From a virus, in IMG/VR virus record IMGVR_UViG_3300039071_000077, positions 1 to 38,458 of that record: a DNA stretch of 38,458 bases. The stretch is one strand, 5' to 3'. The notes under the pieces were generated by a model, which saw only the letters and a program-made list of their open reading frames with translations, had not been told where the DNA came from and did not search any database. A program made the position numbers and the translations under genes. Within the stretch, counting starts at the first letter, position 1. The number at the start of each line of letters is the position of its first letter. Below, piece after piece: positions 1,174 through 36,882 of the stretch.

Positions 1174-1250
1174 GATGTAAAATTCGTTTTTACATCAAAA
1201 AAAAAATAGGACAGCAAAAACCAAAGGTTCAAACCGCCTATTTTGATGTA
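1174..1250 (-). promoter_or_regulatory. Structured leader with two mutually exclusive hairpins before the 106-aa gene
   Basis: A 9-bp stem (1174-1182 with 1188-1196) abuts the ATG. Alternatively, 1191-1210 pairs with 1237-1250 (UACAUCAAAAUAGG with CCUAUUUU..GAUGUA, with a U bulge). The segment GAUGUA (1191-1196) is shared by both. Confidence 0.5.
1203..1213 (-). promoter_or_regulatory. TGTCCTATTTT motif, site 1 (29 nt before ATG 1173)
   Basis: Exact 11-mer on the coding strand. A TTTG lies 21 nt upstream of the TA. Confidence 0.6.
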
Positions 1251-1401
1251 ATATTCTAATTTTTAAACGTTTAACTATTTGAAAATCAAAATTTTAGTTT
1301 AAAAATTTATATTTCTTATTTTAAAATATCACGATTCGGCACGCCTGTCCCTAAAAATTTTTTCACTTTCCATTTGCGAAAATCTAGGAAATATGAATTT
1401 G

Positions 1402-2931
1402 TTATCGTGAGGACCCGATGCGCCACTCATTGGCAAAGCTTGTCGTTCCTTTGAATCTATCGTTGTATAAGGTAACGATTGGGATGTCAAAGGCATCAGG
1501 TAAGTGTGTTGCGTGTTGCTGTGGGAACGAACTGTTGCGTTCATCCTTCTTGTTCTTCTCTACTCCTGCTGGAGATTCTTTTGCTTCAGTTCGTTCCAAT
1601 GCAATAATCAAATCAGGATTGTTTGCTTCATTGATACGTATCTTAGGCAGGTTAGACTGGTTCTCCTTAAGCATGGCATTGAACAACAAATACTTATCAT
1701 AGTGTGTTGCAGCTGCACCACGTGACATGATGATAACAGTCCAACCATGTGATGATAGTAGTTCTCGTACTTGTTCAAATAAAGTCTTTGAACTATTTGG
1801 CAGTCTGTTGTTTCCATCGTGTCCACCATATAAGTAGATAGTCTTATCCTGGTGCGGTCTGTAGTATGGAATGAATTGTTCAATGAATAGATCATCCAAT
1901 AGCTTTGGAGACTTCACCCACATAGACTTCAACACACGATACTCATCATCATGCGTTTGTGATACCACCAATGAATTGAACACACCAAAGTCAAGCGATA
2001 CAATCAGTGGTTCATTTGGATTTATATCATTGTCCTGGTTACAATTGAAATGTTCACGCATGATGTCCTGACTGCCAGCCTTAAACTTTGAAGCATCTAA
2101 GCCTTCAAGGTATGATGCACTGTAGTCAGTGTAGTAATGCTTATCAGGATTTAAGTTAGCATAAAAGCCGTCAGTGATTTCCTTTGGTCTTATGTTTAGA
2201 ATTTCGGCATCATATATCAATTGGCTTGGTGCTTCTGCTCTCATATCATCAAACCAACCCTTACGTAAGTTGTGAGCGTTTGCGAATGAGTTAGCCTTTC
2301 CAAAATAGTACAAATCAGGTCGCTTGCGTGCTTCTGCTTCCATATCTGTGAACCATTTCCCTTTCTTAGTAATTGGTGTTGATGATGCGTAAAATTCAGC
2401 TCCAAGCATTGAAGCATCCTTAAATATTTCTTTTTTTGCTCTATTCGTAGTCTTTACGTTGTTGTATAGTTTTTCAGGATCTAATAACGCAGCTTCATCA
2501 CCAATACCACCGTAAGAATTCAAACCACGCCCAGTATTCGGATTGTCTAATGATACCAATTGGAATATTGCACCATTCGAAAAGTGAATAATGTTATTCC
2601 ATTGGTTCGGTGGTTGGAATGGCATTTGGAATCCATTCTTCTTACCGGAACGCCCTACAACATAATCCACATCCTGATACAAATTGAACATTTCCAATCC
2701 TTCAATCGTACTCGGTAAGGTTCTAGAAAGTATCTGAGAATAAGTAGCACCAACCAAAAAGAATGAAGCTCTAGGCATTTGTACTACAAACTTTCTAGCA
2801 ACTCCACCTAATCCTGTAGATTTTCCTGTACCACGACTCCACTCCCAGTAGTTTTTTTGGCGCATATTAATAAACGCCTTTGCTTGTGGTATGTTTAGAT
2901 TGATAACTTTAGTCTTCGCCTTGTTCTTCAT
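1402..2931 (-). CDS. terL: Terminase large subunit
   Basis: 509 aa. Walker A-like WSRGTGKSTG near the N-terminus, Walker B-like GIGDEAAL, and a C-terminal nuclease-sized half. Overlaps the upstream small ORF by 23 nt. Confidence 0.9.
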   Translation of the reverse strand: MKNKAKTKVINLNIPQAKAFINMRQKNYWEWSRGTGKSTGLGGVARKFVVQMPRASFFLVGATYSQILSRTLPSTIEGLEMFNLYQDVDYVVGRSGKKNGFQMPFQPPNQWNNIIHFSNGAIFQLVSLDNPNTGRGLNSYGGIGDEAALLDPEKLYNNVKTTNRAKKEIFKDASMLGAEFYASSTPITKKGKWFTDMEAEARKRPDLYYFGKANSFANAHNLRKGWFDDMRAEAPSQLIYDAEILNIRPKEITDGFYANLNPDKHYYTDYSASYLEGLDASKFKAGSQDIMREHFNCNQDNDINPNEPLIVSLDFGVFNSLVVSQTHDDEYRVLKSMWVKSPKLLDDLFIEQFIPYYRPHQDKTIYLYGGHDGNNRLPNSSKTLFEQVRELLSSHGWTVIIMSRGAAATHYDKYLLFNAMLKENQSNLPKIRINEANNPDLIIALERTEAKESPAGVEKNKKDERNSSFPQQHATHLPDAFDIPIVTLYNDRFKGTTSFANEWRIGSSR

Positions 2932-3493
2932 CTTCTTCTACGTTTTCAAATTCTATATCAATTGGAGCTGACAAATTTGAATCATCAACGCCTTGATTTT
3001 CTGATAATTTCAAGTACTTAAATAACTCTTTCGGAATAGCGAACTTAATTTCCACGTTTTCAAGTTTTTCAGGATTGAAGTCAGCCAAGTCAACTTCATC
3101 TAATCCACCAAACTTAGACATTAGCTCCAATGCTTTAGCCTGTGCTTTTAAGTCTTTGGCTTGAATAGCACGTTGATAGTATTTGTGTGCATATTCGTAA
3201 AGAATCGCCTGCTTTCCTTTCTTGTCGGATTCCATTACGTTTCCGTACAAAATTTGCGCATTCTTCACATCCAAATACGCTTGCGCTAATGAAACTCCAT
3301 GATCTTCCATTAACTTATTCACGATTTGTTGTGGCGAATAATAGTTGAAAGAAAGCGTGAGCACTTCTGACCAACGCTTTCTTATTTCCTCCAATTTTGG
3401 AGATAAAGGGAACCGCACTGGGTCGATATGATGCGCCATTATCTTTTCCAGTGTGGTATCGCCTTTCTGTATTTTAAACGGAAGTTTATTCAT
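2909..3493 (-). CDS. Putative terminase small subunit (assigned by position)
   Basis: 194 aa, helical, with an acidic C-terminus (VEEDEEQGED). Lies immediately upstream of and overlapping terL. No motif recognised. Confidence 0.45.
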   Translation of the reverse strand: MNKLPFKIQKGDTTLEKIMAHHIDPVRFPLSPKLEEIRKRWSEVLTLSFNYYSPQQIVNKLMEDHGVSLAQAYLDVKNAQILYGNVMESDKKGKQAILYEYAHKYYQRAIQAKDLKAQAKALELMSKFGGLDEVDLADFNPEKLENVEIKFAIPKELFKYLKLSENQGVDDSNLSAPIDIEFENVEEDEEQGED

Positions 3494-4769
3494 TCAAATA
3501 AAGTTCTAATTGTTCATTGGACAACTTTTGTCCATTTTTTACGATTTCATATTGCAGATGATTATCGCGCATGTACTTAATGTAACGCTTGATGTGAACA
3601 TCGGCATAGTTTTCTCCTAATTCAATGATGCGTGCTTGTCTCCATGTTTTCTCGCAAGAAATCAAAGTAGTTCCAGAACCACCAAATGGATCGCCAACAA
3701 TATCACGTTGCTTACTGCTGTTTTTTATAAGATAACAAAACAACTCTATAGGCTTCATTGTTGGGTGGTCTTCGTTTCGCAATGGTTTGTCAAACTCTAA
3801 AATAGTAGTTTGCTTTCTGTCGGAATACCAATTGTGCGCTGCTCCTTCTTTCCATCCATATAAACAAGGCTCGTGTTTCCAATGATAATCTTGTCTTGAT
3901 AACACCATTGAATTCTTCTGCCAAATCAAACATTGTGAAAGTTTATAACCTGCATCGGCTAATGCCTTTCTAAAGTTGGCACCTTCACTATCTGCGTGAA
4001 AAACATAAATTGGCGCACCTGGTAATGCTTTCAAAAATGTTTCTTGGTAGAACAAATACAAAAACGTGTAAAAATCTCCTGTAGACATGTTGTCGTTTTC
4101 GATTTTCAAGCGGTCTTTTGTTCCACCTTCATAGTTTACGTTGTATGGTGGATCAGTAAGAACCAAGTTAAATTCTTCTGGTCCTAATTTCTTATAAGGT
4201 TCGTTTTTGGTGCTATCGCCACAAACAATCACGTGCTTGATTCCTTTTTGTACCGATTTCAATTCGTAAACATCACCAATTTGCGTGATTGATTCTTTTG
4301 GTGGTGTTGGGTCAAACTCTTGTTCTTCTTCATTGTCACCTTCTTCTCCTAAAGCTTCTCCTGGTATTTCAATATCTTCTAAAAATAATCCTAGTGATTC
4401 CAAATCCACATCACCAAAATGTGCTTCTAAAACATCAACATCCCAAAACCCAACTGGAACGTTTGATGTAATGTTGTATTCCTTGAATTCCGATTCGGTT
4501 AAGCATCGGCTTGGAATACGCACATCGATTTCTTCTTCTCCTCTGCCGATGTCCATCATTACTTTTACTCTTTGATGTCCGGCAATAATAACGTTATCGG
4601 TGTTTACTGCAGGAATTTCGGCAAGGTTAAACTTCTCGATACTTTTAATCAGAAGTGCTTTTTTCTCTTCTGTTAGTTTTCTAGGATTGTACTCATAAGG
4701 AACTAAGTCTTTGACTTTCCTTTTTTCGGTTCTCCATTCTAGTGGAGCGGTTAAAATATTAGTTTCCAT
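3486..4769 (-). CDS. ParB-like nuclease domain fused to an N6A/N4C DNA methyltransferase (beta-class motif order)
   Basis: N-terminus has YNPRK...IIAGHQR (ParB/Srx-like). Motif IV is LTDPPYNVNY; motif I DPFGGSGTT lies near the C-terminus. The ATG at 4769 (the track start at 4772 is TTG) overlaps the upstream ORF by 11 nt. Confidence 0.85.
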   Translation of the reverse strand: METNILTAPLEWRTEKRKVKDLVPYEYNPRKLTEEKKALLIKSIEKFNLAEIPAVNTDNVIIAGHQRVKVMMDIGRGEEEIDVRIPSRCLTESEFKEYNITSNVPVGFWDVDVLEAHFGDVDLESLGLFLEDIEIPGEALGEEGDNEEEQEFDPTPPKESITQIGDVYELKSVQKGIKHVIVCGDSTKNEPYKKLGPEEFNLVLTDPPYNVNYEGGTKDRLKIENDNMSTGDFYTFLYLFYQETFLKALPGAPIYVFHADSEGANFRKALADAGYKLSQCLIWQKNSMVLSRQDYHWKHEPCLYGWKEGAAHNWYSDRKQTTILEFDKPLRNEDHPTMKPIELFCYLIKNSSKQRDIVGDPFGGSGTTLISCEKTWRQARIIELGENYADVHIKRYIKYMRDNHLQYEIVKNGQKLSNEQLELYLNE

Positions 4770-5529
4770 CAATTAGGCGTTTTATGGTTAATAATTCCTC
4801 ATTTTTAGCAATGAGTGTGCTTTCTTGTTTTGATATGCTTCGCTCCAGTTTCTTTACTTCAGCTACTCCGTTTGCGGTTTTTAGGAGTTCTTTATTTTGA
4901 AGTAATCGCTTTTTCATTTTGCTGATACTAGCAAAAAGATGTTGTTCTTTTTTTAGCATATTAGCCGGAGACAAACTTTCGAATTCGGTTTTAGCTTCTT
5001 TTGGAGCTACTTTGTGTGTTTTCCAATAGTCTAGCTTTTCCCAACACAATGCGTTTTGCTTTTGCTTTTTAGCAATATCAATTTGAATCGATAATGCTTT
5101 GTATTCGGCTTCTGCTGGAAATTCGTTTAGTTGCACTTTTAAGAAGCACATTTCTTTAAATAGCGTATTGGCTTCTAAAAGTATAGGTCGAAGTTCTGCA
5201 GGTAATTCGTGAAAGTAAAGTGCTTGTTTGGTAACGTAGTTGGTTTGTTGTTGTTCAATATATTGCACAACGGAAACATCATTTGATTGCTTTTGACTGC
5301 TTTTGACTGGTTTTGACTGGTTTTGACTGGTTTTGACCGCTTTTGATTGGTTTTGAACTGACTTGTCAATTTTTGACAACTCATACTTTAATTTTTCGAG
5401 CAGTTGAGCAGTTTGTTTGCGCTGGAAGTTTTTTAGTAAATTTTTATTATGAGCTGGTAAACTCGCATACAACAAAACTCCTTCATCATAAGGAGTTCCT
5501 TTTGCTTTCCATTGTTCTATTGCGTTCAT
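4759..5529 (-). CDS. Hypothetical protein, 256 aa, with decapeptide repeats (QNQSKPVKTS-like) and a coiled-coil-like C-terminal half
   Basis: ATG at 5529 lies 29 nt after motif site 5559-5569. Contains the 10-nt DNA tandem repeat at 5281-5360. Confidence 0.75.
   Translation of the reverse strand: MNAIEQWKAKGTPYDEGVLLYASLPAHNKNLLKNFQRKQTAQLLEKLKYELSKIDKSVQNQSKAVKTSQNQSKPVKSSQKQSNDVSVVQYIEQQQTNYVTKQALYFHELPAELRPILLEANTLFKEMCFLKVQLNEFPAEAEYKALSIQIDIAKKQKQNALCWEKLDYWKTHKVAPKEAKTEFESLSPANMLKKEQHLFASISKMKKRLLQNKELLKTANGVAEVKKLERSISKQESTLIAKNEELLTIKRLIDGN
5281..5360. repeat. Tandem repeat, eight 10-nt units (plus-strand consensus TTTTGACTGG) inside CDS 4759-5529
   Basis: Read directly. There are three perfect units at 5301-5330 with degenerate flanking units, and weaker units extend to 5380. 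Confidence 0.9.
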
Positions 5530-5558
5530 ATAGCAAAGTTGCAGAAATGGAAAGCGTA

Positions 5559-5569
5559 AAAATAGGACA
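5559..5569 (-). promoter_or_regulatory. TGTCCTATTTT motif, site 2 (29 nt before ATG 5529)
   Basis: Exact 11-mer, lying directly after terminator 5571-5593. Confidence 0.6.
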
Positions 5570-5570: not shown

Positions 5571-5593
5571 AAAAAAACCACTCCGAAGAGTGG
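5571..5593 (-). terminator. Intrinsic terminator, CCACUC-UUCG-GAGUGG plus U7
   Basis: 6-bp GC-rich stem with a UUCG tetraloop and a T-run on the minus strand, 19 nt after the stop of the 110-aa gene. Confidence 0.8.
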
Positions 5594-5612
5594 CAATAAT
5601 CAACCTATAGGT

Positions 5613-8690: not shown

Positions 8691-9701
8691 TTAAGGAGTT
8701 ACTGCCAAAGTTTCTGATTCGTAGTACAATGCATTTTGAGTAGCATTTTCTAATCCTCTTTCAGAGCCATCAAAAACAGCCACGTAAAGCAATTGGTTGA
8801 TTAAGAAATCATAACCAAGGAAGAACTCCATGAACACTTTTAACTTGTAATCAAGCGTTTGTGTTTCTGTAACTGCTGGTTTGTCTTGAACATCAATCAA
8901 ACGAACCATATTTCCATCAACTGTTGTGAACATGATATCGTCTGGAATATTTGGTAAACCAACAATTTCCATTTTAGTTAATGGAGTTTTCATGTTTCCA
9001 TCAGCAGTATAGTTCACGTTTGTACCATATGCTTGTTCGTACTCATCAGCAAATGTTAATGCCATTGAATCACTCATAAACAAGTATTTACACTTTCTAC
9101 GAGTTTTCTTTGGTAATTGCTTTTCAAATGATTTTACTTCATCTAAAATATTAGATGGAGTAATTGCATTCAAAGGAATACGGAACGCTGGATGTGTTGT
9201 GTCTGCCAAAGCATTTTCCACTTGTGTAGCAATTCCATCTAATGATTTTCCAAACTCACCATCAGCGTTAGCATCATCACGAACACCAGTTTGTGATAAA
9301 TCTTCTAAATCATCGGCAACCTTTAATAAAAGGTCATCCATGATATATTTAGAAATTGGATGTTCTGCTGCAGTTTTACCTGTAGTATATAAATCCGCTA
9401 ACCATGAATTCAAAATTTCAGAAGGAATTACAGCGAAGTTTACTTTGTGGTGGAACGCTTTAAGCATCTTGTGCTTAAATTGCGCTTCTCCAAGTTCTTG
9501 CCATTCTGCTTTGAAACCTTGAACTACACGAGTTAAGATTGAATGGAATTGTGGAAATTTACCTTTAACCGCAGTTAAGGTTTTGCAGTACTTGTTTAAA
9601 GTAACTTCTGCAGCATAAACACCAGCAGAGATTACCTCTGTGTTGTTTTTTACGTATTCGTTCACTTCTTTTTGAACGTCTTGGACATTGATTGTAGCCA
9701 T
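8691..9701 (-). CDS. Major capsid protein (putative)
   Basis: 336 aa, starting 2 nt after the protease-scaffold gene. Size and position are typical of an HK97-fold capsid. Resemblance to the P2 gpN-like family is from memory only. Confidence 0.65.
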   Translation of the reverse strand: MATINVQDVQKEVNEYVKNNTEVISAGVYAAEVTLNKYCKTLTAVKGKFPQFHSILTRVVQGFKAEWQELGEAQFKHKMLKAFHHKVNFAVIPSEILNSWLADLYTTGKTAAEHPISKYIMDDLLLKVADDLEDLSQTGVRDDANADGEFGKSLDGIATQVENALADTTHPAFRIPLNAITPSNILDEVKSFEKQLPKKTRRKCKYLFMSDSMALTFADEYEQAYGTNVNYTADGNMKTPLTKMEIVGLPNIPDDIMFTTVDGNMVRLIDVQDKPAVTETQTLDYKLKVFMEFFLGYDFLINQLLYVAVFDGSERGLENATQNALYYESETLAVTP

Positions 9702-9703: not shown

Positions 9704-11053
9704 TTATTTACCAATTAATGAGTTAGCCATTTGATTGTGAGAAGCTGATTCGTCAACGAAATCATTTTTTACTCCTTCTGAAGCTCCAATCTTAGGAGCG
9801 GTTGTTGATGCACCGTCTTGTTTACCTACTTCAATGCTTTTTGCATTAATAGCAGTTAATTTTTCGGTTAAAGTTCCTGCAACTGGTAAACCTAAGTTTT
9901 CCATAATTGCATCTACAGAAGTTTCCATTGCAGTGGCATTGGTTTGTGCTTCTGTTAATTGTCCGGTTACTGCATCAATAGCAGTTTGATGATTTGCGTT
10001 TGCATCATCCAATTGTGTTTGAATAGTGGAATTTTCAGTTTCCAATGTTTCCAAACGACCATTAATAGCTTCTAACTGCTCTTCGTTTAAAAAGCTCCCA
10101 TTGTCGGTAAGAGCCAACGGAGCATCTAAACCTAAAACAGCTTCCACTTTTGGTAGCGATTTAGTGTTCATATTAGTATTTGATTTAGAATTATTCGATT
10201 TTTTAGCGTTTGACAATTCGAAAACTTTGTCAATAGCATCTTGCATGGTTCCAAAAGCATCAATCAATCCTTCTTGGATTGCTTCTTGTGGAGAGAAAAC
10301 ATCACCTTTCAATGCTCTTTCTGAAATGTTTGGTAAGAATCGTTTCATATCTGCATGAAACTTTTCTGCTAAAGGATTTAATGAATTTTCAATTAAATAT
10401 CTCTCATCACCTTCTTGAAGCTTTCTAGTTGCAATGTTTTTCTCTGGAGATAAATCAGAGTAAATTTCATAAACCTTTCCACCTTGCTTTTCAATAATGC
10501 CTTTAAGATTTACGCCTTGTGTCATTACTCCAATAGAACCAACAACATCCGCAAATTCATTAAGTATTTTGAATTGAGAAGCTGCATACATATAATAAGC
10601 AGCAGAACCAACAATATCATTTGAATAAGAAACAAGTGGTTTATCGTAATTGAAAATGTAATTTGCTATTTCAGGTGTTCCAGAAACTTGTCCACCACCT
10701 GAATTATAATCCATTACAACACCAATAACAGTTTCATCATTACGCCAACCTTCTAAAATAGACATTATGCTTTGTGTCCCTCTTGGTCCACACATTTGGT
10801 CATATTTAAAAATAGGATGATGTACTTGAATGATTCCAACCTTCTCTTCTTTTGAAGCAGAAGCACTTGGTTGGTTCGGATTGAAAGGATCAAATACCAT
10901 TTTAGCATCTGATAAATAAAATCCAGTAGTATTTAAAGTCTCTTTAATTTCCTGACCGCTAATGATATTCATTAAAAACGGAAGTAGGTCGTTTCCTGTA
11001 TCACCAGAAAACATCCATTTGGAACTTAAAAGACTGTACGTGTTCTTTTTCAC
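9704..11053 (-). CDS. Prohead protease (S49/SppA-ClpP fold) fused to a coiled-coil scaffold-like C-terminus
   Basis: Signatures DYNSGGGQVSG and IVGSAAYYMYAAS. The C-terminal ~170 aa are Ala/Glu/Gln/Thr-rich. The start codon is GTG at 11053; the first in-frame ATG is codon 14. Confidence 0.75.
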   Translation of the reverse strand: MKKNTYSLLSSKWMFSGDTGNDLLPFLMNIISGQEIKETLNTTGFYLSDAKMVFDPFNPNQPSASASKEEKVGIIQVHHPIFKYDQMCGPRGTQSIMSILEGWRNDETVIGVVMDYNSGGGQVSGTPEIANYIFNYDKPLVSYSNDIVGSAAYYMYAASQFKILNEFADVVGSIGVMTQGVNLKGIIEKQGGKVYEIYSDLSPEKNIATRKLQEGDERYLIENSLNPLAEKFHADMKRFLPNISERALKGDVFSPQEAIQEGLIDAFGTMQDAIDKVFELSNAKKSNNSKSNTNMNTKSLPKVEAVLGLDAPLALTDNGSFLNEEQLEAINGRLETLETENSTIQTQLDDANANHQTAIDAVTGQLTEAQTNATAMETSVDAIMENLGLPVAGTLTEKLTAINAKSIEVGKQDGASTTAPKIGASEGVKNDFVDESASHNQMANSLIGK

Positions 11054-11098
11054 AAAAAAAAATATTGTATTGTTACTACTATTTCACAATACAATATT
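11054..11098 (-). terminator. Terminator-like or attenuator hairpin (perfect 13-bp AU-rich stem, 12-nt loop) plus a U-run, ending at the GTG start of the protease gene
   Basis: aatattgtattgt (11061-11073) pairs with acaatacaatatt (11086-11098). Seven further T's on the minus strand (11054-11060) run up to GTG 11053. Confidence 0.5.
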
Positions 11099-11116
11099 AT
11101 TTTAATGTGTGTTCTT

Positions 11117-11127
11117 AAAATAGGACA
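11117..11127 (-). promoter_or_regulatory. TGTCCTATTTT motif, site 3 (63 nt before GTG 11053)
   Basis: Exact 11-mer, 2 nt after the stop of the 155-aa gene. Confidence 0.55.
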
Positions 11128-11129: not shown

Positions 11130-11597
11130 TTATAAAACCGTATAAAACACTGGTCTATTGGCGGTTTCTCCTTTAATTTCAATTACAGTTGTTCCTTCTC
11201 CATCAATCTTTGTTCCTGGAACATCTTCATAGATCATATACAAAGGTTCGGTATTGGAACCATATATTTTTTGAAATCCGTTATTGAATTTCGCTCGTGC
11301 AATACCAGGTTTGTTTTCGTACTGTTCCAAGAGTTGTTCCAATGCTTCCGAACGCGTTAAGAATTCCATTTTTATGGAAATAGCGTGCGATACACCGAAA
11401 TTCTTATTGGTTTTGTTATCACCCACCACAATACTATCAGGTTTAATGGTAGCTTCAACGGAATGAACCGAAGGATTGAACTCTAATTGTGCTGAATTAC
11501 TATCGGAAAGTATTTCAGGCCAATTACTAACTTCCTCTAAAAGGAAAAAATCTAATTCGGCAACTCCGGAAAGTTGCTCATCACATGAAAATGTCAT
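11130..11597 (-). CDS. Hypothetical protein, 155 aa (head-module position)
   Basis: ATG at 11597. The stop lies 3 nt before motif site 11117-11127. Confidence 0.7.
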   Translation of the reverse strand: MTFSCDEQLSGVAELDFFLLEEVSNWPEILSDSNSAQLEFNPSVHSVEATIKPDSIVVGDNKTNKNFGVSHAISIKMEFLTRSEALEQLLEQYENKPGIARAKFNNGFQKIYGSNTEPLYMIYEDVPGTKIDGEGTTVIEIKGETANRPVFYTVL

Positions 11598-11670: not shown

Positions 11671-12132
11671 CTATAAGTTTACTTTATTTTTCTTTTTGTG
11701 CTTAATATTTTCACCGCAATAACGCTGGTAATTTCGGTACATAGAATCCTGATTTAGTTCGTTTTCTGAAATGTCATAAATACTAAAAAACAAACGAATT
11801 GCCTTTTTTGCAGTCAAATCTCCTTTTACCAGCTCGTTATCCACAAATGAGTAGAAGTCTTCAAAGAACAAACGTTCCAGGCATACAGACAAAAACTTCA
11901 ATTTGTTGTTATCAATTGAGTAACCTTTGGCGTTAAAATAGAATTCCGGAACCTCAATATCGTAGAAGCTTCCTTTTCCTGCTTCTTTTTCTGGCTTTTC
12001 AACTTTCTTTTCCAGTAGTTGGAGCAGAAACAAACCAATAAATGTCTTTTTGCTCACCTGATGCACAGCTCCGTAACGCTTGATCAGGTATTTTTTTACA
12101 TGGCACTTAACAGGAATTTGGATAACTATCAT
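11671..12132 (-). CDS. Hypothetical protein, 153 aa; first gene after the non-coding iteron region (a regulator is possible)
   Basis: ATG at 12132. Basic termini. No domain recognised. Confidence 0.65.
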   Translation of the reverse strand: MIVIQIPVKCHVKKYLIKRYGAVHQVSKKTFIGLFLLQLLEKKVEKPEKEAGKGSFYDIEVPEFYFNAKGYSIDNNKLKFLSVCLERLFFEDFYSFVDNELVKGDLTAKKAIRLFFSIYDISENELNQDSMYRNYQRYCGENIKHKKKNKVNL

Positions 12133-12233: not shown

Positions 12234-12478
12234 GTTCCACAATTCCACATCATTGAAAATCAATGTTTTAGAGTTCCACAAGTAGTAGGAACTTGTGGGA
12301 ACATGGTGTTTTTTGTTGGAACTCAAAAAAATAGTTCCACAAATCCCACAAAAATCCCACAGAATTTTACAAAAGTTCCACAGTACTTATTTAGACTTAA
12401 TATATTGATTATTAAATATATAGTATAGATTATATCTATAGTAAAAGTATGTTTGTGGGAAAATGGAACTTTTGGAAC
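12234..12478. repeat. Iteron-like array of (G/A)T(T/C)CCACA units in direct and inverted orientation around an AT-rich dyad (candidate origin or regulator-binding hub)
   Basis: Direct units at 12234, 12242, 12273, 12334, 12343, 12354 and 12375. Inverted units at 12294, 12315, 12454, 12464 and 12473. Dyad TATAGAT-TAT-ATCTATA at 12424-12440. Confidence 0.7.
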
Positions 12479-12663: not shown

Positions 12664-12688
12664 AAAAAAAACCGCCTTGTGTGGCGGT
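12664..12688 (-). terminator. Intrinsic terminator at the end of the early operon (ACCGCC/GGCGGU stem plus U8)
   Basis: Plus strand reads aaaaaaaaccgccttgtgtggcggt. On the minus strand the hairpin is followed by a T8 run. Confidence 0.8.
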
Positions 12689-12711
12689 TTGTGTTGGTTG
12701 TGGGTTTTGGT

Positions 12712-13191: not shown

Positions 13192-13346
13192 AAAATTTAG
13201 TTTTAAAACCCACAACTGAAAGATAACAGCAATTTGTAGAAATGGCTACTATTCGCAGTTTTGGATTGATTGTTGTTTAATTTATAATTAGTTATTTTTT
13301 GTTGTGTAATCGCTTGAATTACGCCACTTCTACAAGTTGCAAAACG

Positions 13347-13580
13347 TTAAAACAATTGAAGCTGTTCTCCTTTTGCTGGATGGAGTTCTTTTATTTCTGA
13401 AAAAGGAATTCCCATTTTAGTATCTTGAAAAACAACTAAGCATTTTGATTCGTGTCTTTTTAAAGGATCATGAATAAAGTCTTTTATTTCTGAAGTAACT
13501 TCTTTCATTACTAGATTTTTATTGTCAGGCCACGTATGAATATCAAATGTTATTTTTTGTCCGATTTTCATTTGTTCCAT
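13347..13580 (-). CDS. Hypothetical protein, 77 aa
   Basis: ATG at 13580, 1 nt after the upstream stop. Confidence 0.7.
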   Translation of the reverse strand: MEQMKIGQKITFDIHTWPDNKNLVMKEVTSEIKDFIHDPLKRHESKCLVVFQDTKMGIPFSEIKELHPAKGEQLQLF

Positions 13581-20764: not shown

Positions 20765-21346
20765 TTATTGAATGATTTTATTCGTAATTGCTTTTGTGAT
20801 TAATCCTGATTTTGAATACACGTTAAATTTTTCAAAAAGGTGTTTTTTGTGTGTGTTCAAAGTAGATTCAGTAATTTCAAGTTCATCAGCAATTTGCTTA
20901 TCAGGTTTGTCAGAAGCTAAAAGCGTAACGATTTCAAGTTCACGTGGAGTTAGTTTGTTTCCGTCGATTGAAATATTTTTCGATTGCCATTTTAAGCATT
21001 GGCAATTATTAGAGCAGATAAAGTTGTCGGCTTGTTTTAGATTTCCGTTGCAATCAAAATCAGGTTCATGATCTGCTGCACCGTAAACACAAAAAGCAAA
21101 TCTTTCAATTGCTTCAGATTGTGAAAGGTTTTTTAAATCTTCTATCGCAGCTTCATCTGAAAGTAATTTTTCAAAAATTAATGCTCTTTTGGTTGGGTTT
21201 AATTCTTCAAACTTAATGGTTTGACCATTTGAAAGGGCAAAAACTTGCTTAGTTTCTCTACATCCAAAAAGTTCTGTGGATGTATCACCAATCATCAGTC
21301 CAGCTGGTATTTGGTGAATTAGTGAATTTGTTGTAAATTTGTCCAT
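20765..21346 (-). CDS. LuxR/GerE-type HTH transcriptional regulator with a Cys-rich N-terminal domain
   Basis: C-terminal TPRELEIVTLLASDKPDKQIADELEITESTLNTHKKHLFEKFNV matches the GerE HTH pattern. The N-terminal 130 aa are of unknown type and contain DCNGN...FICSNNCQCLKW. Confidence 0.75.
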   Translation of the reverse strand: MDKFTTNSLIHQIPAGLMIGDTSTELFGCRETKQVFALSNGQTIKFEELNPTKRALIFEKLLSDEAAIEDLKNLSQSEAIERFAFCVYGAADHEPDFDCNGNLKQADNFICSNNCQCLKWQSKNISIDGNKLTPRELEIVTLLASDKPDKQIADELEITESTLNTHKKHLFEKFNVYSKSGLITKAITNKIIQ

Positions 21347-21763: not shown

Positions 21764-21774
21764 CATTTTTGAAT
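21739..21774. promoter_or_regulatory. Two 17-bp direct repeats AACAAACATTTTTGAAT (21739-21755, 21758-21774) overlapping the -33 and -7 boxes (candidate repressor operators)
   Basis: Read directly. The second copy extends into the dyad AACATT-TTTG-AATGTT. Confidence 0.55.
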
Positions 21775-21792
21775 GTTTTTTAAATAATATAT

Positions 21793-26888: not shown

Positions 26889-29800
26889 TTATCCGATTGT
26901 TCCATTTTGAGAAGCAGAAGTAATTTCATTTTTCATGTCTTCCATTGCTTCAACATCTTTATAACCTAAATTTAATTTTGCCATAATTCCGTTTGATAGT
27001 GTTGCATTCAAATTATTTACAGCATTTACCAACATTGCAGTTTCATTTGATGAAGTTGCTACTGGGTTCTGACCGACTACACCAGGAGAAGTTGCACCAC
27101 CATCTACATAACCACGCATTTTGCTTTGTCTATTGGCTTCTAACCAACCTATTGTATTGGCAAATCGTGGGTCTTGTGTCATACTTTCCGGAATAACATA
27201 CTCATTTTTGTGAACGTAGCCTGTTACTGGTCCGTATTCATCATAACCAAGTGCAGCAGTTGTTCCTGTGTTACCACCGTAGAAAAATTTAGGAGATTTT
27301 GGAGGTTTAGCACTTGCAATTTTACCTACTTGTGCTATTGTTGTAATTCCTGCTGCTGCAATTGCCGCCCACATTGCAAAACCACCATCAAATTTTGGGT
27401 ATTGCGCTAAAATAGAAGTAACAGCCATAGCTCCATTGATTCCAGCCTGAATAATTGCCAATTCTTTAGACTGACCAAACATTTCTCCAATAGCTCCAGC
27501 AACTTGACTTAAACCACCAAGAGTTCCTTGCAATTGTTGAAGCTCGCGAACTCTGTCCATTTCATCCTGCTTCTTTTTTGCTAATTCTTTAAAACGAGCG
27601 TATTCCTCATCCGTAATCTTTTTATCAGCGTAAAGTTTAGCGTATCGCTGTAATTCAACTTGGTAATCTTGTTCTTGTTTTATTTTATCGGCTTCGGCTT
27701 TGGTTTCGGCTTCGGCTAATGCTAATTCATTATCGAGAGCCAATTGCTCGGCTTTTAATATTTTTTGTTCTTGCTCGTATTGTAATTTTAGTGCATCAGT
27801 TGATTGTTGGAAACCAAGTTCTAACTCTTGATTTCTCATTTGATACTCTAAGTTCAACGCTTCTTTTTCTGCATTAAGAACTTCAACTGATGTTTTTTCT
27901 AAAACAGCTTTGGCTTCTAAATCGGCAATCTTTCGAGCCAACTCATTATTATTAAATTGAATTTGAGCGTCTTTTATTTTTTGTAAACGTTCAGTTTCAA
28001 TTGCAATGCTTTCAGGTGTTAAGGCTTTTTCTTTATCAAGCGTAGAGCGTAAATCAAAAATATATTTATCTAATTGCGCTTTAGCTAAATTGGCTTTTGC
28101 ATCGGCTAACGCTTTGGCTTTATCGTATTGTTCCTTTGCGGCTTTTTCTTCTTCGGCTTTGCGTTTTGCAGCTGCATCTTCACGTGCTTTTTGTTCTGCT
28201 TTTATTGCATCTGCAGTAGCACCACCACCACCAGAACCCGATGTTGAATTTGTTGTTTTATTATTGGTAACAGTTTGAACTTCGGCTTTTATTTTTACTT
28301 CTTTTGATTTAAAACCTTCAATTGATTTTTTAAGTTTATCAACGTCTAATCCTAAAGCTTCAAGTACTGGTGCAATATTGCTAATAATTCCAAGTACAGC
28401 ATCTAAAACAATATTTTTAAGTTTTCCAAAAGCATTTCCAACGGTATTTACAACTTTTAAAAATCCGTTTTTTAATGCATCTAATGCTCCAGAAAAATCT
28501 CCTGAAAATATCTTTTTAAAGAACTCTACAAAAGTCGATACTACATTTCCAATAAGTTTGAAGTTGGTTTTAATCAACTCAAAGAAAACCATAAATGTAG
28601 CTTTTGTACTTTCCCAAGCGTTTGAGAATACAACGCCAACAAAATCAATTAAAGGTTGAATGTCTTGTTTTACTTCTGAAATATATTCTAACATTGAAGC
28701 AAAAGCATCTACAGAAACCGCTTTAATTTTTGTCCAAATATCTCCAAAATCTTTGATTTCAAATAACTCGGCTTGTGCTTTATTTAATCTTTCGTTTGCA
28801 TCAACCAATTGAAGTGAAGCTTTTGCAGTTGCATCCAACTCTCGTTTTGCTGATTGTCCTAAAGCTTCAAATATCTTTTGCGCACCACCAGCATCTTCTC
28901 CAGCACCTTTGAAAACATCTGCGGTCAATTGTGCATATTGTTGTTGCGAAAGATTAGATTCTTGTGCTTTTTGTGCAATAGCTTCTAAAGCTTGTTTGGT
29001 TGTGAGTTCTCCAGTTTTAACCTTATTCAATACTTCATCAGAGAATGAAGCACCGAAAGCATTCACCAAAGCATCACGTGTTGACTTGGTATTTTCTTTT
29101 AATGCCAAATCTGCTTCTTTTAAAGCATCTGGAAGTTTGTCAGAGTAAATTCCTAAATCATAACCAGTGTTGATTACGTTTGCAAATTCTTGTGCTGAAT
29201 ATCCTGCTTTTGCAAAGAACTCATCATATTCTCCCAATGAATCCAAAAACTCACCATTTTGCGCACCACCCGAAGCCAATCCTTCAGCAATAACACGATT
29301 GGCTTCTGACATTGAAATTCCGTAGGTTTTGGAAAGCGAGTTTGCTTTTTCTGCAATTTCTTTGAAGTCTTTGTCGAATGTTTCTGCAGTAGCGGAAATT
29401 TCATCGCGAACTTTTGAAATTTCGGAAGCGTTTACACCAAGAGCACGAAGCTCTGAATTCATAGTATTTAATTCTTGATTGTAATCAAATAACGCTTTTG
29501 CTCCTGCACCCAAAGCAGCTAATCCTGCAATTGCAGCACCAATTGGTGTAGCAATAAAAGCCAATGAAGATTTCAGTAATCCACCCATTCCAGAAGTAAT
29601 AGAACTAATTCCTTCTTTTGCTCCTTGCAAATCACCTGAAATAAGCGAATCCCAAATTCCTGTAAGTGTGCCACGCAAACCTCCTGAAATTTCGTTGGCT
29701 TCTTGCATGGTTTTATTTGTCAAACCAAGTTCTTCACGATAAGCAGATTGTCGTTGGCGCAATTGATCCATTGTTTGCGCTAATTCTTTTGAGTCTTTTT

Positions 29801-29942
29801 CGTAGGTTTCAGAATCAGAGTTTAGTAAACGCATTCTGTTACGCACTTGTGCCATTGCGCCTTCCACTCCTTTTAAGGAATTTTCGACTTCTTTTCCATT
29901 TACGAAAATGGATATTCTTCTGGTAACGTTGTCTTTACTCAT
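26889..29942 (-). CDS. Tail tape measure protein
   Basis: 1017 aa. Has hydrophobic Gly/Ala-rich segments and a long Ala/Lys/Glu coiled-coil core (AEQKAREDAAAKRKAEEEKAAKEQ). It is the largest virion-module gene (only the primase-helicase ORF is longer). Confidence 0.85.
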   Translation of the reverse strand: MSKDNVTRRISIFVNGKEVENSLKGVEGAMAQVRNRMRLLNSDSETYEKDSKELAQTMDQLRQRQSAYREELGLTNKTMQEANEISGGLRGTLTGIWDSLISGDLQGAKEGISSITSGMGGLLKSSLAFIATPIGAAIAGLAALGAGAKALFDYNQELNTMNSELRALGVNASEISKVRDEISATAETFDKDFKEIAEKANSLSKTYGISMSEANRVIAEGLASGGAQNGEFLDSLGEYDEFFAKAGYSAQEFANVINTGYDLGIYSDKLPDALKEADLALKENTKSTRDALVNAFGASFSDEVLNKVKTGELTTKQALEAIAQKAQESNLSQQQYAQLTADVFKGAGEDAGGAQKIFEALGQSAKRELDATAKASLQLVDANERLNKAQAELFEIKDFGDIWTKIKAVSVDAFASMLEYISEVKQDIQPLIDFVGVVFSNAWESTKATFMVFFELIKTNFKLIGNVVSTFVEFFKKIFSGDFSGALDALKNGFLKVVNTVGNAFGKLKNIVLDAVLGIISNIAPVLEALGLDVDKLKKSIEGFKSKEVKIKAEVQTVTNNKTTNSTSGSGGGGATADAIKAEQKAREDAAAKRKAEEEKAAKEQYDKAKALADAKANLAKAQLDKYIFDLRSTLDKEKALTPESIAIETERLQKIKDAQIQFNNNELARKIADLEAKAVLEKTSVEVLNAEKEALNLEYQMRNQELELGFQQSTDALKLQYEQEQKILKAEQLALDNELALAEAETKAEADKIKQEQDYQVELQRYAKLYADKKITDEEYARFKELAKKKQDEMDRVRELQQLQGTLGGLSQVAGAIGEMFGQSKELAIIQAGINGAMAVTSILAQYPKFDGGFAMWAAIAAAGITTIAQVGKIASAKPPKSPKFFYGGNTGTTAALGYDEYGPVTGYVHKNEYVIPESMTQDPRFANTIGWLEANRQSKMRGYVDGGATSPGVVGQNPVATSSNETAMLVNAVNNLNATLSNGIMAKLNLGYKDVEAMEDMKNEITSASQNGTIG

Positions 29943-30351
29943 TGCCTAACGTGTTGGATGATTTCATATTATTATCAAAACCGAAGTTGATTCGGTTTAT
30001 AATTACTTCTGCTCTTTGATTTCCGATGATGTCGGCTAAATCTTCTACTGCTTTGCCACGTTCTACAGCATCGATAATGAAATCACGTGCTTTTAATCTT
30101 GCGTTGATTCCGTTTGCTTTTGTGCCTTCAAATCCTACGTGAAGAATTGGATAGATGTAGTAAGGTGTAAAAATGGTGATGCGCTCTAAAAGATTGTTTT
30201 TGTAAAATGGTTTTACGGTTGACTTTGAAGCCAAACCGCTACCCTTTTGCGTTTTGCTACGAATAGAAGAAAGCAAGTTGCGTTTGATTCGGTTTGCGAA
30301 TTGTGTTCCTGCTTGTTTTTCTAACATAAATAAATCTACTTGACCAGCCAT
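29935..30351 (-). CDS. Possible HK97 gp10-like tail-completion / neck protein
   Basis: 138 aa. HVGFEGTKANGINARLKARDFIIDAV resembles the vEfGT...a.pFl core of the gp10 family (from memory). Overlaps the tape measure start by 8 nt. Confidence 0.35.
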   Translation of the reverse strand: MAGQVDLFMLEKQAGTQFANRIKRNLLSSIRSKTQKGSGLASKSTVKPFYKNNLLERITIFTPYYIYPILHVGFEGTKANGINARLKARDFIIDAVERGKAVEDLADIIGNQRAEVIINRINFGFDNNMKSSNTLGNE

Positions 30352-30395
30352 TTTTTGTATTTATTTATGGTAAAATTAGGTTTGAGTAATGGCAA

Positions 30396-30406
30396 AAAAT
30401 AGGACA
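30396..30406 (-). promoter_or_regulatory. TGTCCTATTTT motif, site 4 (44 nt before ATG 30351)
   Basis: Exact 11-mer, lying directly after terminator 30409-30430. Confidence 0.55.
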
Positions 30407-30408: not shown

Positions 30409-30430
30409 AAAAAACCACCCCGAAGAGTGG
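30409..30430 (-). terminator. Intrinsic terminator, CCACUC-UUCG-GGGUGG plus U6
   Basis: Near-identical to the hairpin at 5578-5593. Lies 8 nt after the stop of the secreted moron gene. Confidence 0.8.
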
Positions 30431-30438
30431 TTTAGTGA

Positions 30439-30816
30439 TTAACAAAACTTTAAAACAAGAAAATTACCAGGATCAATATGGAGATTATTGTGTTGTTCAA
30501 AATTAGTTTTCAAATTGAGGTTTTCATTATCTATAAACCGCCAACTATAAAACTGATTTTTTGTGTTTTTCTGAATGTTTAAATCAGCAGGAGTATTTTT
30601 CAAACTATAGTTCCACAATTCCACAGGCCTGTGAATACTACAATTATCAAAAAGAATTTGTGGAACTTCTACATAAACTTCCAACGTAGCAACAAAATTA
30701 AAAGCATCTGCTTTTACAATTTCTGTTTTTACTCCATCATCAGGAGCGTGTGCTTGTACTGGCAAGGCACTTAACGTAAACAACGCTAAAATTAAGCCGA
30801 AAACAAATTTTTTCAT
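30439..30816 (-). CDS. Secreted hypothetical protein, 125 aa (moron)
   Basis: Signal peptide MKKFVFGLILALFTLSALPVQA. Own upstream motif site (30873-30883) and its own UUCG-loop terminator (30409-30430). Confidence 0.7.
   Translation of the reverse strand: MKKFVFGLILALFTLSALPVQAHAPDDGVKTEIVKADAFNFVATLEVYVEVPQILFDNCSIHRPVELWNYSLKNTPADLNIQKNTKNQFYSWRFIDNENLNLKTNFEQHNNLHIDPGNFLVLKFC
30609..30666. repeat. Satellite copies of the iteron unit inside the moron CDS
   Basis: The 17-mer AGTTCCACAATTCCACA (30609-30625) is identical to 12233-12249. There is also a palindrome CACAGGCCTGTG (30622-30633) and an inverted TGTGGAAC (30659-30666). Confidence 0.6.
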
Positions 30817-30872
30817 AAAATGATATTTGGTTATTTTTTAATTAAATCAAATTTATAAACAACACTTTCCAA

Positions 30873-30883
30873 AAAATAGGACA
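30873..30883 (-). promoter_or_regulatory. TGTCCTATTTT motif, site 5 (56 nt before ATG 30816)
   Basis: Exact 11-mer. An imperfect inverted partner, ggctctattttt, lies at 30903-30914. Confidence 0.55.
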
Positions 30884-33616: not shown

Positions 33617-33617
33617 G

Positions 33618-35104: not shown

Positions 35105-35105
35105 A

Positions 35106-36842
35106 TTATATTCTTTTATAAAGTGTCATATCAACTAAAGATGCTCTGACTGCTAAAGCTGTTGTTCCGTTATTTCTCCAAAATCTTGGAAGTAAATTAA
35201 AATTTGTTGCTGGTAAATTTGTTGTTATTTCAACCCAAGCAGTTTCTACTTTTGTAGAAATGTTAATCACACGATACCAAATTGAAGCACTACCGGGCAC
35301 ATTGTACATTTGCAAACAATACAAATCAGTAGTTATTGTATTGGCTGGAAAACTTGCTCCTAAACTTACTTTTGTTGCAGTTCCAGCGCTATCATTATGA
35401 ATAAAACTTAAATTAGCATCACCGCTATCAGCACCTACACCAAAAATATTTGCTTGCGTACTCGGGTTAACATTTCCAAATACAGTTAAACTACCAAGTA
35501 AACCAGCAAAAACACGAGCATCTGAAACTGCGGAAGCATCTTCATTTCCGAATTTTATAGAAAAAAAGAAACCATCACCAATACTTGTTTGTTTAAAAGA
35601 CTGCTCATAATACTCAGCTGAACTACCAGCAGTAGAAGCACTCAATCTTCTATGTCTTACAGATTTTATAAAATCATTACCACTAAATAAAGGTGATTGA
35701 TTATCTGCTGTACCAACAAAAGCTGGAGTAGAAAAACCATACCATCCAGTTGGTGTTGGTCTCCATGCATAAATAGAATATTTCTGTAAATCAGGTAGAG
35801 ATATTCCAAACTCACTCGTAGGCTTTGTACTTTGCGAACCATCTGCATTAATGATATAAGCACGCTCTACACCCGATGTTGTTACTTTGTCAACCTTGCC
35901 ACTATCAGAAATTTTGATATAAGCAGAGCCACTCCAACGATAAGTAAAATTCGTATCTAAAGCGACATAAATTTTACCATTTTCACCTGTACCAGGAAAA
36001 GAAGCAAAATCTGCAAACTCTAAAACATCATCTACATAAGAAGGCAATTGTGAAGGTGGAACTTTACCATCCACCAAATCGGCTTTTGTAGATAAATCAA
36101 CTTCACTCCAACTCTTAAAAAATAAATCCATTTTTTCTGTAGATGGATTATATTTCAACCATACAATTCCGTTTTGTGGCACTACTAAATCAGCACCCAA
36201 ATTGAAAGGAATATCAACTGGTGAAAAAGCATTTTTCAAAGTAACATTGTGATCAGTTTTGTTTTCAAAGTAAAAATCTTTTCCAGCATAAGGAACTTCG
36301 GCTGTTGGTGATGCTACAATCAAATCTTTTGAAAAACCAGCAATACTTGTAACTGGTCCTATAACTGAGTAGTGTTGCTGTCCTAAAGTGCGTAATTCAA
36401 TAACTGCATCTGTACCACCTAAAACTTGTGTTATTTTTTGGTTTTCATCTTTTTTCTTGAATTGCGTGCCAACCAACGGAGTTTCTTCATCACCAATCGT
36501 ATCACCTGAAATATTCCAAGAAGTCAATAAAATATTTGTATCAGGAACAACTGGTTGCAAAGCAATAGTTTCAGATTCTAAACCTTGTTGTAATTCTATT
36601 GAATTTGAAGTATTTAGTATTGCGTTATCAATTCTGTAGAAACCTTCTGAAGCTTCGGCAATTGTAAGAACAACTGCTGCCGTATTTTGATAGGTTACTC
36701 CGTTAATTTTCCAAACGAAACCAACTGAAAAGGTAAATTCATTACCATCACGAGTAATGGTTCCCAATTGTAAAATTTGGTTTCCAGCTGAAAAAACAAC
36801 TGGTGTACATGAAAACGGATTATTTGCGCCTGTAATACTCAT
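35106..36842 (-). CDS. Tail fibre / receptor-binding-like protein
   Basis: 578 aa. DGKVPPSQLPSYVDDVLEFADFASFPGTGENGKIYVALDTNFTYRWSGSAYIKIS is a motif I recall from many phage fibre proteins. Beta-rich, Gly/Ser/Thr/Asn-rich. ATG 29 nt after motif site 36872-36882. Confidence 0.55.
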   Translation of the reverse strand: MSITGANNPFSCTPVVFSAGNQILQLGTITRDGNEFTFSVGFVWKINGVTYQNTAAVVLTIAEASEGFYRIDNAILNTSNSIELQQGLESETIALQPVVPDTNILLTSWNISGDTIGDEETPLVGTQFKKKDENQKITQVLGGTDAVIELRTLGQQHYSVIGPVTSIAGFSKDLIVASPTAEVPYAGKDFYFENKTDHNVTLKNAFSPVDIPFNLGADLVVPQNGIVWLKYNPSTEKMDLFFKSWSEVDLSTKADLVDGKVPPSQLPSYVDDVLEFADFASFPGTGENGKIYVALDTNFTYRWSGSAYIKISDSGKVDKVTTSGVERAYIINADGSQSTKPTSEFGISLPDLQKYSIYAWRPTPTGWYGFSTPAFVGTADNQSPLFSGNDFIKSVRHRRLSASTAGSSAEYYEQSFKQTSIGDGFFFSIKFGNEDASAVSDARVFAGLLGSLTVFGNVNPSTQANIFGVGADSGDANLSFIHNDSAGTATKVSLGASFPANTITTDLYCLQMYNVPGSASIWYRVINISTKVETAWVEITTNLPATNFNLLPRFWRNNGTTALAVRASLVDMTLYKRI

Positions 36843-36871
36843 AAGTCAAATTTCTATTATTTGTAAAGGAA

Positions 36872-36882
36872 AAAATAGGACA
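36872..36882 (-). promoter_or_regulatory. TGTCCTATTTT motif, site 6 (29 nt before ATG 36842)
   Basis: Exact 11-mer, 4 nt after the stop of the 319-aa gene. Confidence 0.6.

Follow-up and report, generated by a model that had tools for sequence, protein, structure and literature searches.

The middle promoters of phage T4 retain the -10 element of the host, but in place of the -35 element they carry a MotA box, whose distance from the -10 element is fixed (PMC2988021). Promoters of the Bacteroidota follow another pattern, which has been described in detail for Flavobacterium johnsoniae: the -7 element (T-12 A-11 H H T-8 T-7 T-6 G-5) is nearly invariant and excludes G at -10 and -9, it is followed by the start site after 4–5 nt, the -33 element is weak, AT-rich tracts occur at -18 and -28, and 87% of the leaders are longer than 10 nt (PMC6847099). 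In F. psychrophilum the same box is located at -12 to -5, and leaderless mRNAs make up only 5.5% (PMC9723704). The paper describing the flavobacterial phages Leef_1 and Ingeline does not contain the word 'promoter' and reads their LuxR gene as a quorum-sensing regulator (PMC8776804). Here we analysed a stretch of 38,458 nucleotides, positions 1 to 38,458 of the IMG/VR virus record IMGVR_UViG_3300039071_000077 (the window, meaning this whole stretch at its full length), in which an 11-mer, TGTCCTATTTT, recurs upstream of genes. We propose, with a probability of roughly 0.72, that the 11-mer serves as the recognition element in the upstream half of a two-part promoter, of a class specific to this phage and its relatives, and that a phage factor made early reads it to turn on the late genes. 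A search of the literature yielded no published late-promoter consensus for flavobacterial phages, and the motif was found in no paper in a phage context.

Exact matches of TGTCCTATTTT occur six times in the window, at 1203, 5559, 11117, 30396, 30873 and 36872, all of them on the minus strand. The six copies lie between open reading frames (ORFs) and point in the same direction as the minus-strand genes. The next start codon follows after 29 nt at three of them (ATG at 1173, 5529 and 36842) and after 63, 44 and 56 nt at 11117, 30396 and 30873, respectively. A preliminary description of this DNA had listed six exact, intergenic copies co-oriented with the genes; positions, strands and start-codon spacings were all reproduced. 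It had further estimated that chance would yield such an 11-mer far less than once per genome and had named a shuffled-sequence control. Dinucleotide-preserving shuffles contained 0.04 copies on average and one at most, compared to the six observed, in agreement with that estimate. When up to two mismatches were allowed, 40 matches were obtained in the window versus 31 expected, indicating that the motif has no degenerate halo and that the signal is all-or-none. All six sites belong to the late part of the genome with the structural and lysis genes, which extends from 11117 to position 1 and continues from the window end to 23595, while the early and immunity regions contain none.

For comparison, relatives were collected as 49 viral-contig loci that were fetched by terminase homology alone, and the resulting set is therefore unbiased toward the motif. 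From the window and these terminase-related contigs, 92 non-redundant occurrences of the 11-mer were aligned, with the motif numbered 1–11. The alignment revealed a second conserved block: A occupies position 30 in 91 of 92 sites, positions 33–36 are T, T, T and G in 86, 92, 70 and 69 sites, respectively, and at the two n positions in between (31–32) G seldom occurs. The spacing from the 11-mer to this block is exactly 17 bp in 91/92 sites, and the stretch bridging the two is not conserved. Positions 12–13 are A or T, AT-rich tracts occur at site positions 13 and 23, and upstream of the 11-mer positions -7 to -2 are nearly all A/T, followed by C or G at position 0. Position 41, 5 nt past the G of the box, is a purine in 86 sites. 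Positions 41–43 read A, T and G in 68, 71 and 62 sites.

Judged from its sequence, the second block is the -7 element of Bacteroidota sigma-A, with T-12 present in 33 of the 92 sites (36%). Applying the published spacing between box and start site, the G of the box (position 36) becomes -5 and the A of the ATG (position 41) becomes +1, so that about two thirds of the sites place an ATG at the predicted +1. It follows that the 11-mer would span -40 to -30, where the -33 element would otherwise be. A TTTG at -33 is absent from the window sites and from the 92-site alignment, the corresponding positions inside the 11-mer reading C-T-A-T. The composite signal is TGTCCTATTTT-N17-[T/G]AnnTTTG-N4-ATG, which we also wrote without the ATG as TGTCCTWTTTW-N17-NANNTTTG; in full, it takes the form W-rich(6)-n-S-TGTCCTATTTT-WW-N15-[T/G]AnnTTTG-N4-(A/G). 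All six window sites fit, each with a box of the type nAnnTTT[G/A] (Table 1), and no further TGTCC anywhere in the window has a downstream -7 box. Matches to the sigma-70 consensus were as frequent in the window as in shuffled sequence, which is what a Bacteroidota system would lead one to expect. The promoter geometry accounts for the constant 29 nt, since 17+8+4 brings the start codon to the predicted start site and leaves no 29-nt leader; the mRNAs from the promoters at 1203, 5559 and 36872 are thus predicted to be leaderless.

The arrangement is conserved among the relatives. The exact 11-mer was found in 35 of the 49 loci, down to a terminase identity of 54%, and 97 of 98 occurrences (with the six of the window counted) are co-oriented with the terminase gene. 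Same-strand ORFs of at least 90 aa account for 79% of that DNA, yet only 4 of the 97 forward-strand copies fall within one. A generalised site, TGTCCT-N23-ANNTTT[GA], had 106 forward versus 2 reverse matches and occurred in 42/49 loci. The preliminary description had also named syntenic positions in relatives as a check, and there the 11-mer did precede the same five gene families. Whether the arrangement is leaderless differs between the classes of site. Upstream of the homologues of 853–1173 (n = 51 non-redundant sites), an ATG occupies positions 41–43 in 50/50 scorable cases, as it does in 11/11 sites upstream of the 578-aa family (homologues of 35106–36842). The arrangement is leaderless at 10/14 sites of the 256-aa family (homologues of 4759–5529) and at none of the 12 sites of the 138-aa family (homologues of 29935–30351), where a 15-nt leader occurs. 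Another 36 sites precede homologues of 9704–11053. More distant terminase relatives display the same architecture with the variant boxes TGTCCTTTTTT, TGTCCTTTTAT, TGTCCTAATTT and TGTCCTACCTT, and one distant lineage carries TGTCATTTAAT and TGTAATTTCTT. Across relatives the TTTT part of the motif varies (TTTTAA, TTTTTG, ATTCT) while TGTCCT and the downstream box are constant.

By gene content, the closest cultured relatives are Leef_1 and Ingeline_1. Leef_1, a Polaribacter phage of the Helgolandviridae with a terminase 50% identical to that of the window, carries TGTCCTTTT(T/A)T at six sites, which are intergenic, co-oriented and confined to the late region; the box follows at the same distance in all six, and in three an ATG begins at position 41. 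Several of its late promoters (469, 2475, 10520) have nAnnTTGC at the -7 position in place of nAnnTTTG, resembling the TAnnTTGY 'SM5' variant box reported in F. psychrophilum. Ingeline_1, a Cellulophaga phage of the Duneviridae whose terminase matches that of the window weakly (a partial alignment with 28% identity), carries TGTCCTTTTAA at five intergenic sites, exclusively in the late region. Its boxes at N17 are TAATATTG, TAATATTG, TAAAATTG, TAGGTTTG or TATATTCG, and two of its sites are leaderless. A further genome, that of the 'Microcystis' phage Mea-Yong924-1 (MZ447863.1; 48% G+C), contains five ACGC-TGTCCTT(T/A)T sites with N17 and nnnnTTTG, again in late regions only (13088, 17597, 19632, 23769 and 28689), and at 4/5 of these the start codon lies 4–5 nt past the box. 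Because of the motif, the TTTG -7 boxes of Bacteroidota type and the start codons at the predicted start site, the recorded cyanobacterial host may be wrong; the true host could be a Bacteroidota member of a non-axenic culture.

Bacterial genomes were scanned for the composite pattern including the ATG, using one genome per species (185,579 species genomes). Of 27 stretches obtained, 16 are prophages with homologues of the proteins of this phage, mostly in Flavobacterium, Tenacibaculum, Polaribacter, Algibacter and Leptobacterium; 10 are isolated with no phage homologue nearby, which is about the chance level. The restriction to prophages indicates that the signal belongs to the phage lineage and is not a general host promoter type. 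In Flavobacterium odoriferum (NZ_JAMKFA010000012.1), two complete signals occur in tandem on the minus strand at 1679 and 1801, 122 bp apart, with no long ORF following and no homologue of the phage proteins within 8 kb. These might drive small RNAs or peptides, or might be a remnant.

The genomic setting bears on how such promoters would be used. The first and last 107 bp of the window (1–107 and 38352–38458) are identical and form a direct terminal repeat. The window is hence a complete, circularly closed phage genome of approximately 38.35 kb, and the portal gene is split by its ends: the ORF at 37843–38418 and the open frame at about 1–850 join into one 459-codon frame once the duplicate is removed. 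The phage is a temperate siphophage, given its integrase and the prophage copies, and being temperate it must keep its late genes off in the absence of a phage signal. We propose that host RNA polymerase with sigma-A would bind the -7 box and that a phage protein made early would read TGTCCT(A/T)TTT, an invariant and asymmetric sequence about one helical turn in length, at -40 to -30. This protein would substitute for or assist sigma region 4, either as a class II activator or in a manner resembling 'sigma appropriation', so that the six promoters would be silent in the lysogen and fire together late. A phage-encoded factor is favoured by the temperate lifestyle, the presence of T-12 in 36% of sites only, the lack of a -33 TTTG and the exact geometry.

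Table 1. Promoter elements, associated signals and neighbouring genes in the window, with strand where assigned.
Feature	Coordinates	Strand	Remark
11-mer box	1203..1213	-	exact match; promoter of 106-aa gene (853-1173) and portal gene
-7 box GAATTTTA	1178..1185	-	predicted start 1173 = A of ATG, leaderless
11-mer box	5559..5569	-	exact match; promoter of 256-aa gene (4759-5529), head of ParB-methyltransferase/terminase block
-7 box CAACTTTG	5534..5541	-	predicted start 5529 = A of ATG
Intrinsic terminator GCCACTCTTCGGAGTGGT + T run	5577..5594	-	directly upstream of 5559 box
11-mer box	11117..11127	-	exact match; first late promoter, before head protease/scaffold and capsid genes
-7 box TAATATTG	11092..11099	-	predicted start 11087 (G)
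Inverted repeat AATATTGTATTGT-N12-ACAATACAATATT + T run	11054..11098	-	repeat 11061-11098, T run 11054-11060
11-mer box	30396..30406	-	exact match; promoter of 138-aa gene (29935-30351) and tape-measure/tail block
-7 box TAATTTTA	30371..30378	-	predicted start 30366 (A), 15-nt leader
Intrinsic terminator AAACCACTCTTCGGGGTGGTTT + T run	30412..30433	-	directly upstream of 30396 box
11-mer box	30873..30883	-	exact match; promoter of 125-aa gene (30439-30816)
-7 box TAAATTTG	30848..30855	-	predicted start 30843 (A), 27-nt leader
11-mer box	36872..36882	-	exact match; promoter of 578-aa gene (35106-36842)
-7 box GAAATTTG	36847..36854	-	predicted start 36842 = A of ATG
193-aa protein, candidate reader	20765..21346	-	early; C-terminal LuxR/NarL-type helix-turn-helix, uncharacterised N-terminal domain
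153-aa protein, second candidate reader	11671..12132	-	orphan; encoded just upstream of first late promoter
Large terminase	1402-2931
ParB-methyltransferase	3486-4772
Capsid protein	8691-9701
S49-type head protease/scaffold	9704-11053
Primase	16678-19938		early block
First early gene	21416-21661
CI-like gene	21793-22152	+
Integrase	22407-23612	+
Tape-measure protein	26889-29942

The late genes are divided into modules by the terminators before 5559 and 30396 and by a hairpin in the 11117 promoter, and each block would for this reason need a promoter of its own. Terminator-like hairpins also occur in relatives, directly before 13/14 sites of the 256-aa class and 8/12 of the 138-aa class. The two terminators in the window share sequence and structure (CCACTC-loop-GAGTGG, then T6–7). 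Terminators of this type are found in many other loci across distant relatives, including Leef_1 (approximately 30615 and 34567), and given the shared sequence and structure, terminator and box may move or be selected as one unit. The 125-aa gene behind the 30873 promoter may be a moron; the N-terminus of its product resembles a signal peptide.

Among the six window sites, a promoter-proximal hairpin with a T run is found at 11117 only, where the box begins 2 nt past the stop codon of a 155-aa gene. The -7 box together with the predicted start site makes up the 5' arm of the inverted repeat. When stems anchored on the -7 box were searched for directly, a contiguous stem of at least 8 bp was found in 25/29 homologous sites of this class (median 12 bp), compared to medians of 5–7.5 bp for box-anchored stems in the remaining classes. 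RNAalifold predicted no pairs for the hairpins of the 11117 class, whose variable loops could not be aligned by MAFFT. The arms vary in sequence among relatives yet stay complementary, which points to a structure rather than a protein-binding site. A T run comes after the stem in the window and in some relatives, and the hairpin would there be a terminator; in other relatives it is the ATG that is overlapped by the 3' arm. Read-through transcripts from the 153-aa and 155-aa genes would form the hairpin and be terminated or untranslatable, and transcripts initiated at the promoter itself would lack the 5' arm and escape. The hairpin may thereby insulate the block against read-through.

Two phage proteins were considered as readers of the box. 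Both had been named as possible binders in the preliminary description, and both are retained as candidates. The likeliest is the LuxR-type protein, a tentative assignment to which we give slightly less than even odds; it is favoured by its gene position and its known type of DNA-binding domain (Pfam GerE, E = 1.5e-15; DNA-binding domain of NarL in the PDB, E = 1.5e-9). It has neither a receiver nor an autoinducer domain, and its N-terminal domain contains Cys. Full-length homologues are encoded by the second gene of the early operon, which adjoins the immunity region, in Leef_1 (32% identity), Ingeline_1 (45%) and Mea-Yong924-1, and this is the sole recognisable DNA-binding early protein common to all four phage groups. 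The 7-bp half-site of the LuxR/NarL family is exemplified by the BvgA heptad TTTCCTA (PMC4314077), and TGTCCTA matches it at 6/7 positions. The possibility that the protein is a disguised extracytoplasmic function (ECF) sigma factor was rejected, as the match to Sigma70_r4_2 (E = 0.0016) is below threshold, region 2 is missing, and the -7 box is the type used by host sigma-A. Between the first early gene and the LuxR-type gene, a strong hairpin terminator is located at 21388–21413.

The orphan 153-aa protein is the second candidate, and an unlikely one. Its family is conserved in 28 of the terminase-related loci and has no Pfam, PHROG, NCBIfam or PDB-sequence match. The AlphaFold model is confident (predicted local distance difference test score, pLDDT, 85) and matches no PDB fold, and the sole match in BFVD is the homologue from Leef_1. 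In the window and in Leef_1, the gene lies just upstream of the first late promoter, whereas Ingeline_1 has it within the late block and Mea-Yong924-1 within the early block; a box promoter precedes it by 98–354 nt in three relatives. Ingeline_1 at first appeared to lack the family and to be a case with the LuxR-type protein only. A broader profile found distant homologues in Ingeline_1 and in Mea-Yong924-1, which removed that case. As both families occur in all groups, the phyletic pattern does not separate the candidates. The 155-aa protein (11130–11597), encoded between the 153-aa gene and the first late promoter, is also conserved. Its beta-rich model (pLDDT 77) bears weak likeness to tail-terminator, tail-tube and Hcp folds (best E = 0.025), and on this basis it was rejected as a co-activator and is probably structural, in which case its gene has an odd place upstream of the first box promoter.

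Several points weigh against a late-acting phage factor as reader of the box. Start sites, leaderless status and the label 'late' are all predictions made from the DNA, and the proteins named as readers are candidates. The recognition helix of the LuxR-type protein varies among phages that share an identical 11-mer. LuxR-type proteins usually bind inverted repeats as dimers, and the box is single and asymmetric with no second half-site. In addition, all of the groups tested that have the box also have the 153-aa family, just as they have the LuxR-type protein. The box is moreover invariant though the candidate factors are 26–45% identical, and a conserved host reader would fit this better. Such a reader could be region 4 of sigma-A on a strong extended -33 element, or an exploited host transcription factor, with no phage factor involved. 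Consistent with this, the core TGTCCT persists across several host genera and even in a genome of 48% G+C, and everything downstream of -30 looks like a host promoter. However, the published promoter logos of F. johnsoniae and F. psychrophilum show no such element, strong constitutive late promoters would turn on the lysis and structural genes of the prophage, and the composite signal is essentially confined to the prophage lineage among the species genomes scanned, although that scan required an ATG and would have missed host genes that use the box with a leader. Taken together, we regard a host reader as improbable.

A repressor operator is another explanation for the position of the box, and one that we hold to be quite improbable. 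A monomeric phage repressor bound at -40 to -30 would here silence intrinsically active sigma-A promoters in the lysogen or in early infection. Asymmetric, intergenic, co-oriented sites in many copies are the pattern of the stoperators of mycobacteriophage L5, and the sites described here are likewise asymmetric, multi-copy, intergenic and gene-oriented and overlap the -33 region; as the host -33 element is weak anyway, the -7 box and the AT-rich tracts might suffice for activity. Against this, the divergent immunity/early-promoter region (21661–21793) contains no box even with up to two mismatches and has a repeat of its own, ATTCAAAAATGTTTGTTG, present twice. The CI-like protein was detected in few relatives, while the box is invariant across lineages and host genera and identical in phages at 54% terminase identity in which no CI homologue was detected. 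Immunity operators normally diverge fast. A repressor also has no need of the exact 17-bp phasing seen in 91/92 sites, and the degenerate T at -12 suggests weak core promoters. The two ATTCAAAAATGTTTGTTG copies form a direct repeat at 21745–21790, between the CI-like gene and the first early gene, and are probably immunity operators that are not related to the 11-mer. An RNA-level signal in read-through transcripts, acting in processing, antitermination or translation, would account for the strand-specific, intergenic location and for the two copies directly after terminators. The preliminary description had offered processing or antitermination as its alternative, which found no support here: the phasing is to a DNA promoter element and not to an RNA structure, no Rfam covariance model reached its gathering score anywhere in the window, the sequence from the 11-mer to the -7 box is unconserved, and the box lies upstream of the predicted start and is thus missing from the promoter's own transcript. 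We consider such a signal very improbable. Least probable of all is the original view of the promoter itself, in which the TATTTTT of the 11-mer serves as a -7-like box with TGTCC as its extended upstream part, so that transcripts would start a few nt downstream and have leaders of about 20 nt. By inspection, TATTTTT loosely resembles TAnnTTTG, but the final G is missing, all six window sites, and 91/92 overall, have a better canonical -7 box at a distance of 17 nt beyond the 11-mer, the 29 nt are fully explained by 17+8+4, and in relatives it is the TTTT part that varies while TGTCCT and the downstream box do not. The broader proposal of the same description, a phage-specific promoter class that restarts transcription before the structural blocks, is strengthened by the restriction of the sites to the late region, by the two sites that follow terminators and by the synteny in relatives.

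We therefore retain the two-part promoter with a phage-encoded reader as our preferred reading. The signal would represent an activator-box type of phage promoter, apparently undescribed, in a phylum in which phage transcription control is essentially uncharted. Late operons and prophages of the lineage can be annotated by eye from so sharp a signal, and start sites can be predicted from it at single-nucleotide resolution. For the LuxR gene of these phages it provides a testable role besides quorum sensing, and leaderless mRNAs are predicted to be unusually frequent, in a phylum without Shine-Dalgarno-led initiation. Two cultured phage-host pairs, Leef_1/Polaribacter and Ingeline/Cellulophaga, allow a direct test. 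If one phage protein switches the promoters on, it could provide a compact orthogonal expression switch for Flavobacteria, for which few genetic tools exist. In its most far-reaching form, which we consider speculative and on balance rather unlikely, the Helgolandviridae, the Duneviridae and their unclassified relatives would run an orthogonal late regulon, in which either an early LuxR-type protein, with a helix-turn-helix like that of sigma region 4, or the 153-aa protein takes -33 recognition over from sigma-A at TGTCCT(A/T)TTT, the transcripts are mostly leaderless, and the 11117 hairpin, by termination or by sequestering the start codon, kills read-through but spares transcripts begun at the promoter. 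If true, this would be a mechanism resembling sigma appropriation in a phylum where none is known.

Two further features of the window were observed. An intergenic segment of 127 nt (13223–13349) recurs with 89% identity in 46 Baltic Flavobacterium phages (Muminvirus and others), in which it is intergenic as well. It was the sole match in a nucleotide search of cultured phages, and no other DNA similarity to those phages was found. As minus-strand RNA it folds with -27.3 kcal/mol (z = -4.4) and has no Rfam match; it could be a non-coding RNA, a replication origin or a small mobile element. At 12234–12381, in the 831-bp gap upstream of the 153-aa gene, GTGGRAY occurs seven times within 150 bp with inverted copies nearby, adjoining a bidirectional terminator at 12669–12690. 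These copies look like replication-origin iterons or regulator-binding sites.

Compared to known systems, the locus shares single features with several. Late control of the lambda Q type differs in that six promoters are used here and two terminators lie upstream, not downstream, of them. The L5 stoperators, too, are asymmetric and intergenic, occur in many copies in a temperate phage and follow the direction of transcription, but the sites described here keep a fixed phase to a -7 box and a start codon, the immunity region lacks them, and divergent phages share them unchanged. Stoperators act as blocks to elongation and differ from one immunity group to the next. With class II activation by LuxR/NarL/FixJ proteins, the system has in common the helix-turn-helix type of the candidate, the 6/7 match to the BvgA heptad, and a site overlapping the -35/-33 region, as do the sites of GerE and MalT. 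It differs in its single asymmetric site, in a candidate without receiver or autoinducer domain, and in that binding is a prediction.

The closest likeness in the core is to Bacteroidota sigma-A promoters, with which the sites share the invariant -7 positions, the lack of G at the n positions, AT tracts near -18 and -28, and a 4-nt gap to a purine; here, however, TGTCCTATTTT takes the place of the -33 TTTG, and T-12 is present in 36%. About two thirds of the sites are predicted to be leaderless, versus 5.5% of the mRNAs of F. psychrophilum. The T4 middle promoters, at which MotA and AsiA carry out sigma appropriation, offer a parallel in overall design: both are two-part, with the -10 or -7 element of the host kept and an asymmetric phage box of about 10 bp in place of the -35 or -33 element, in many copies per genome (PMC2988021). 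No homologue of MotA or AsiA was found by PHROG, Pfam and NCBIfam among 30 window proteins, with about 20 small ORFs, mostly early, outside that scan. The T4 box is centred near -30 with 12 bp to the core, whereas the box described here is near -35 with 17 bp, and it is combined with Bacteroidota sigma-A and its -7 box, a temperate siphophage and many predicted leaderless transcripts. The likeness to the T4 middle promoters would thus appear to be one of function and not of family membership.

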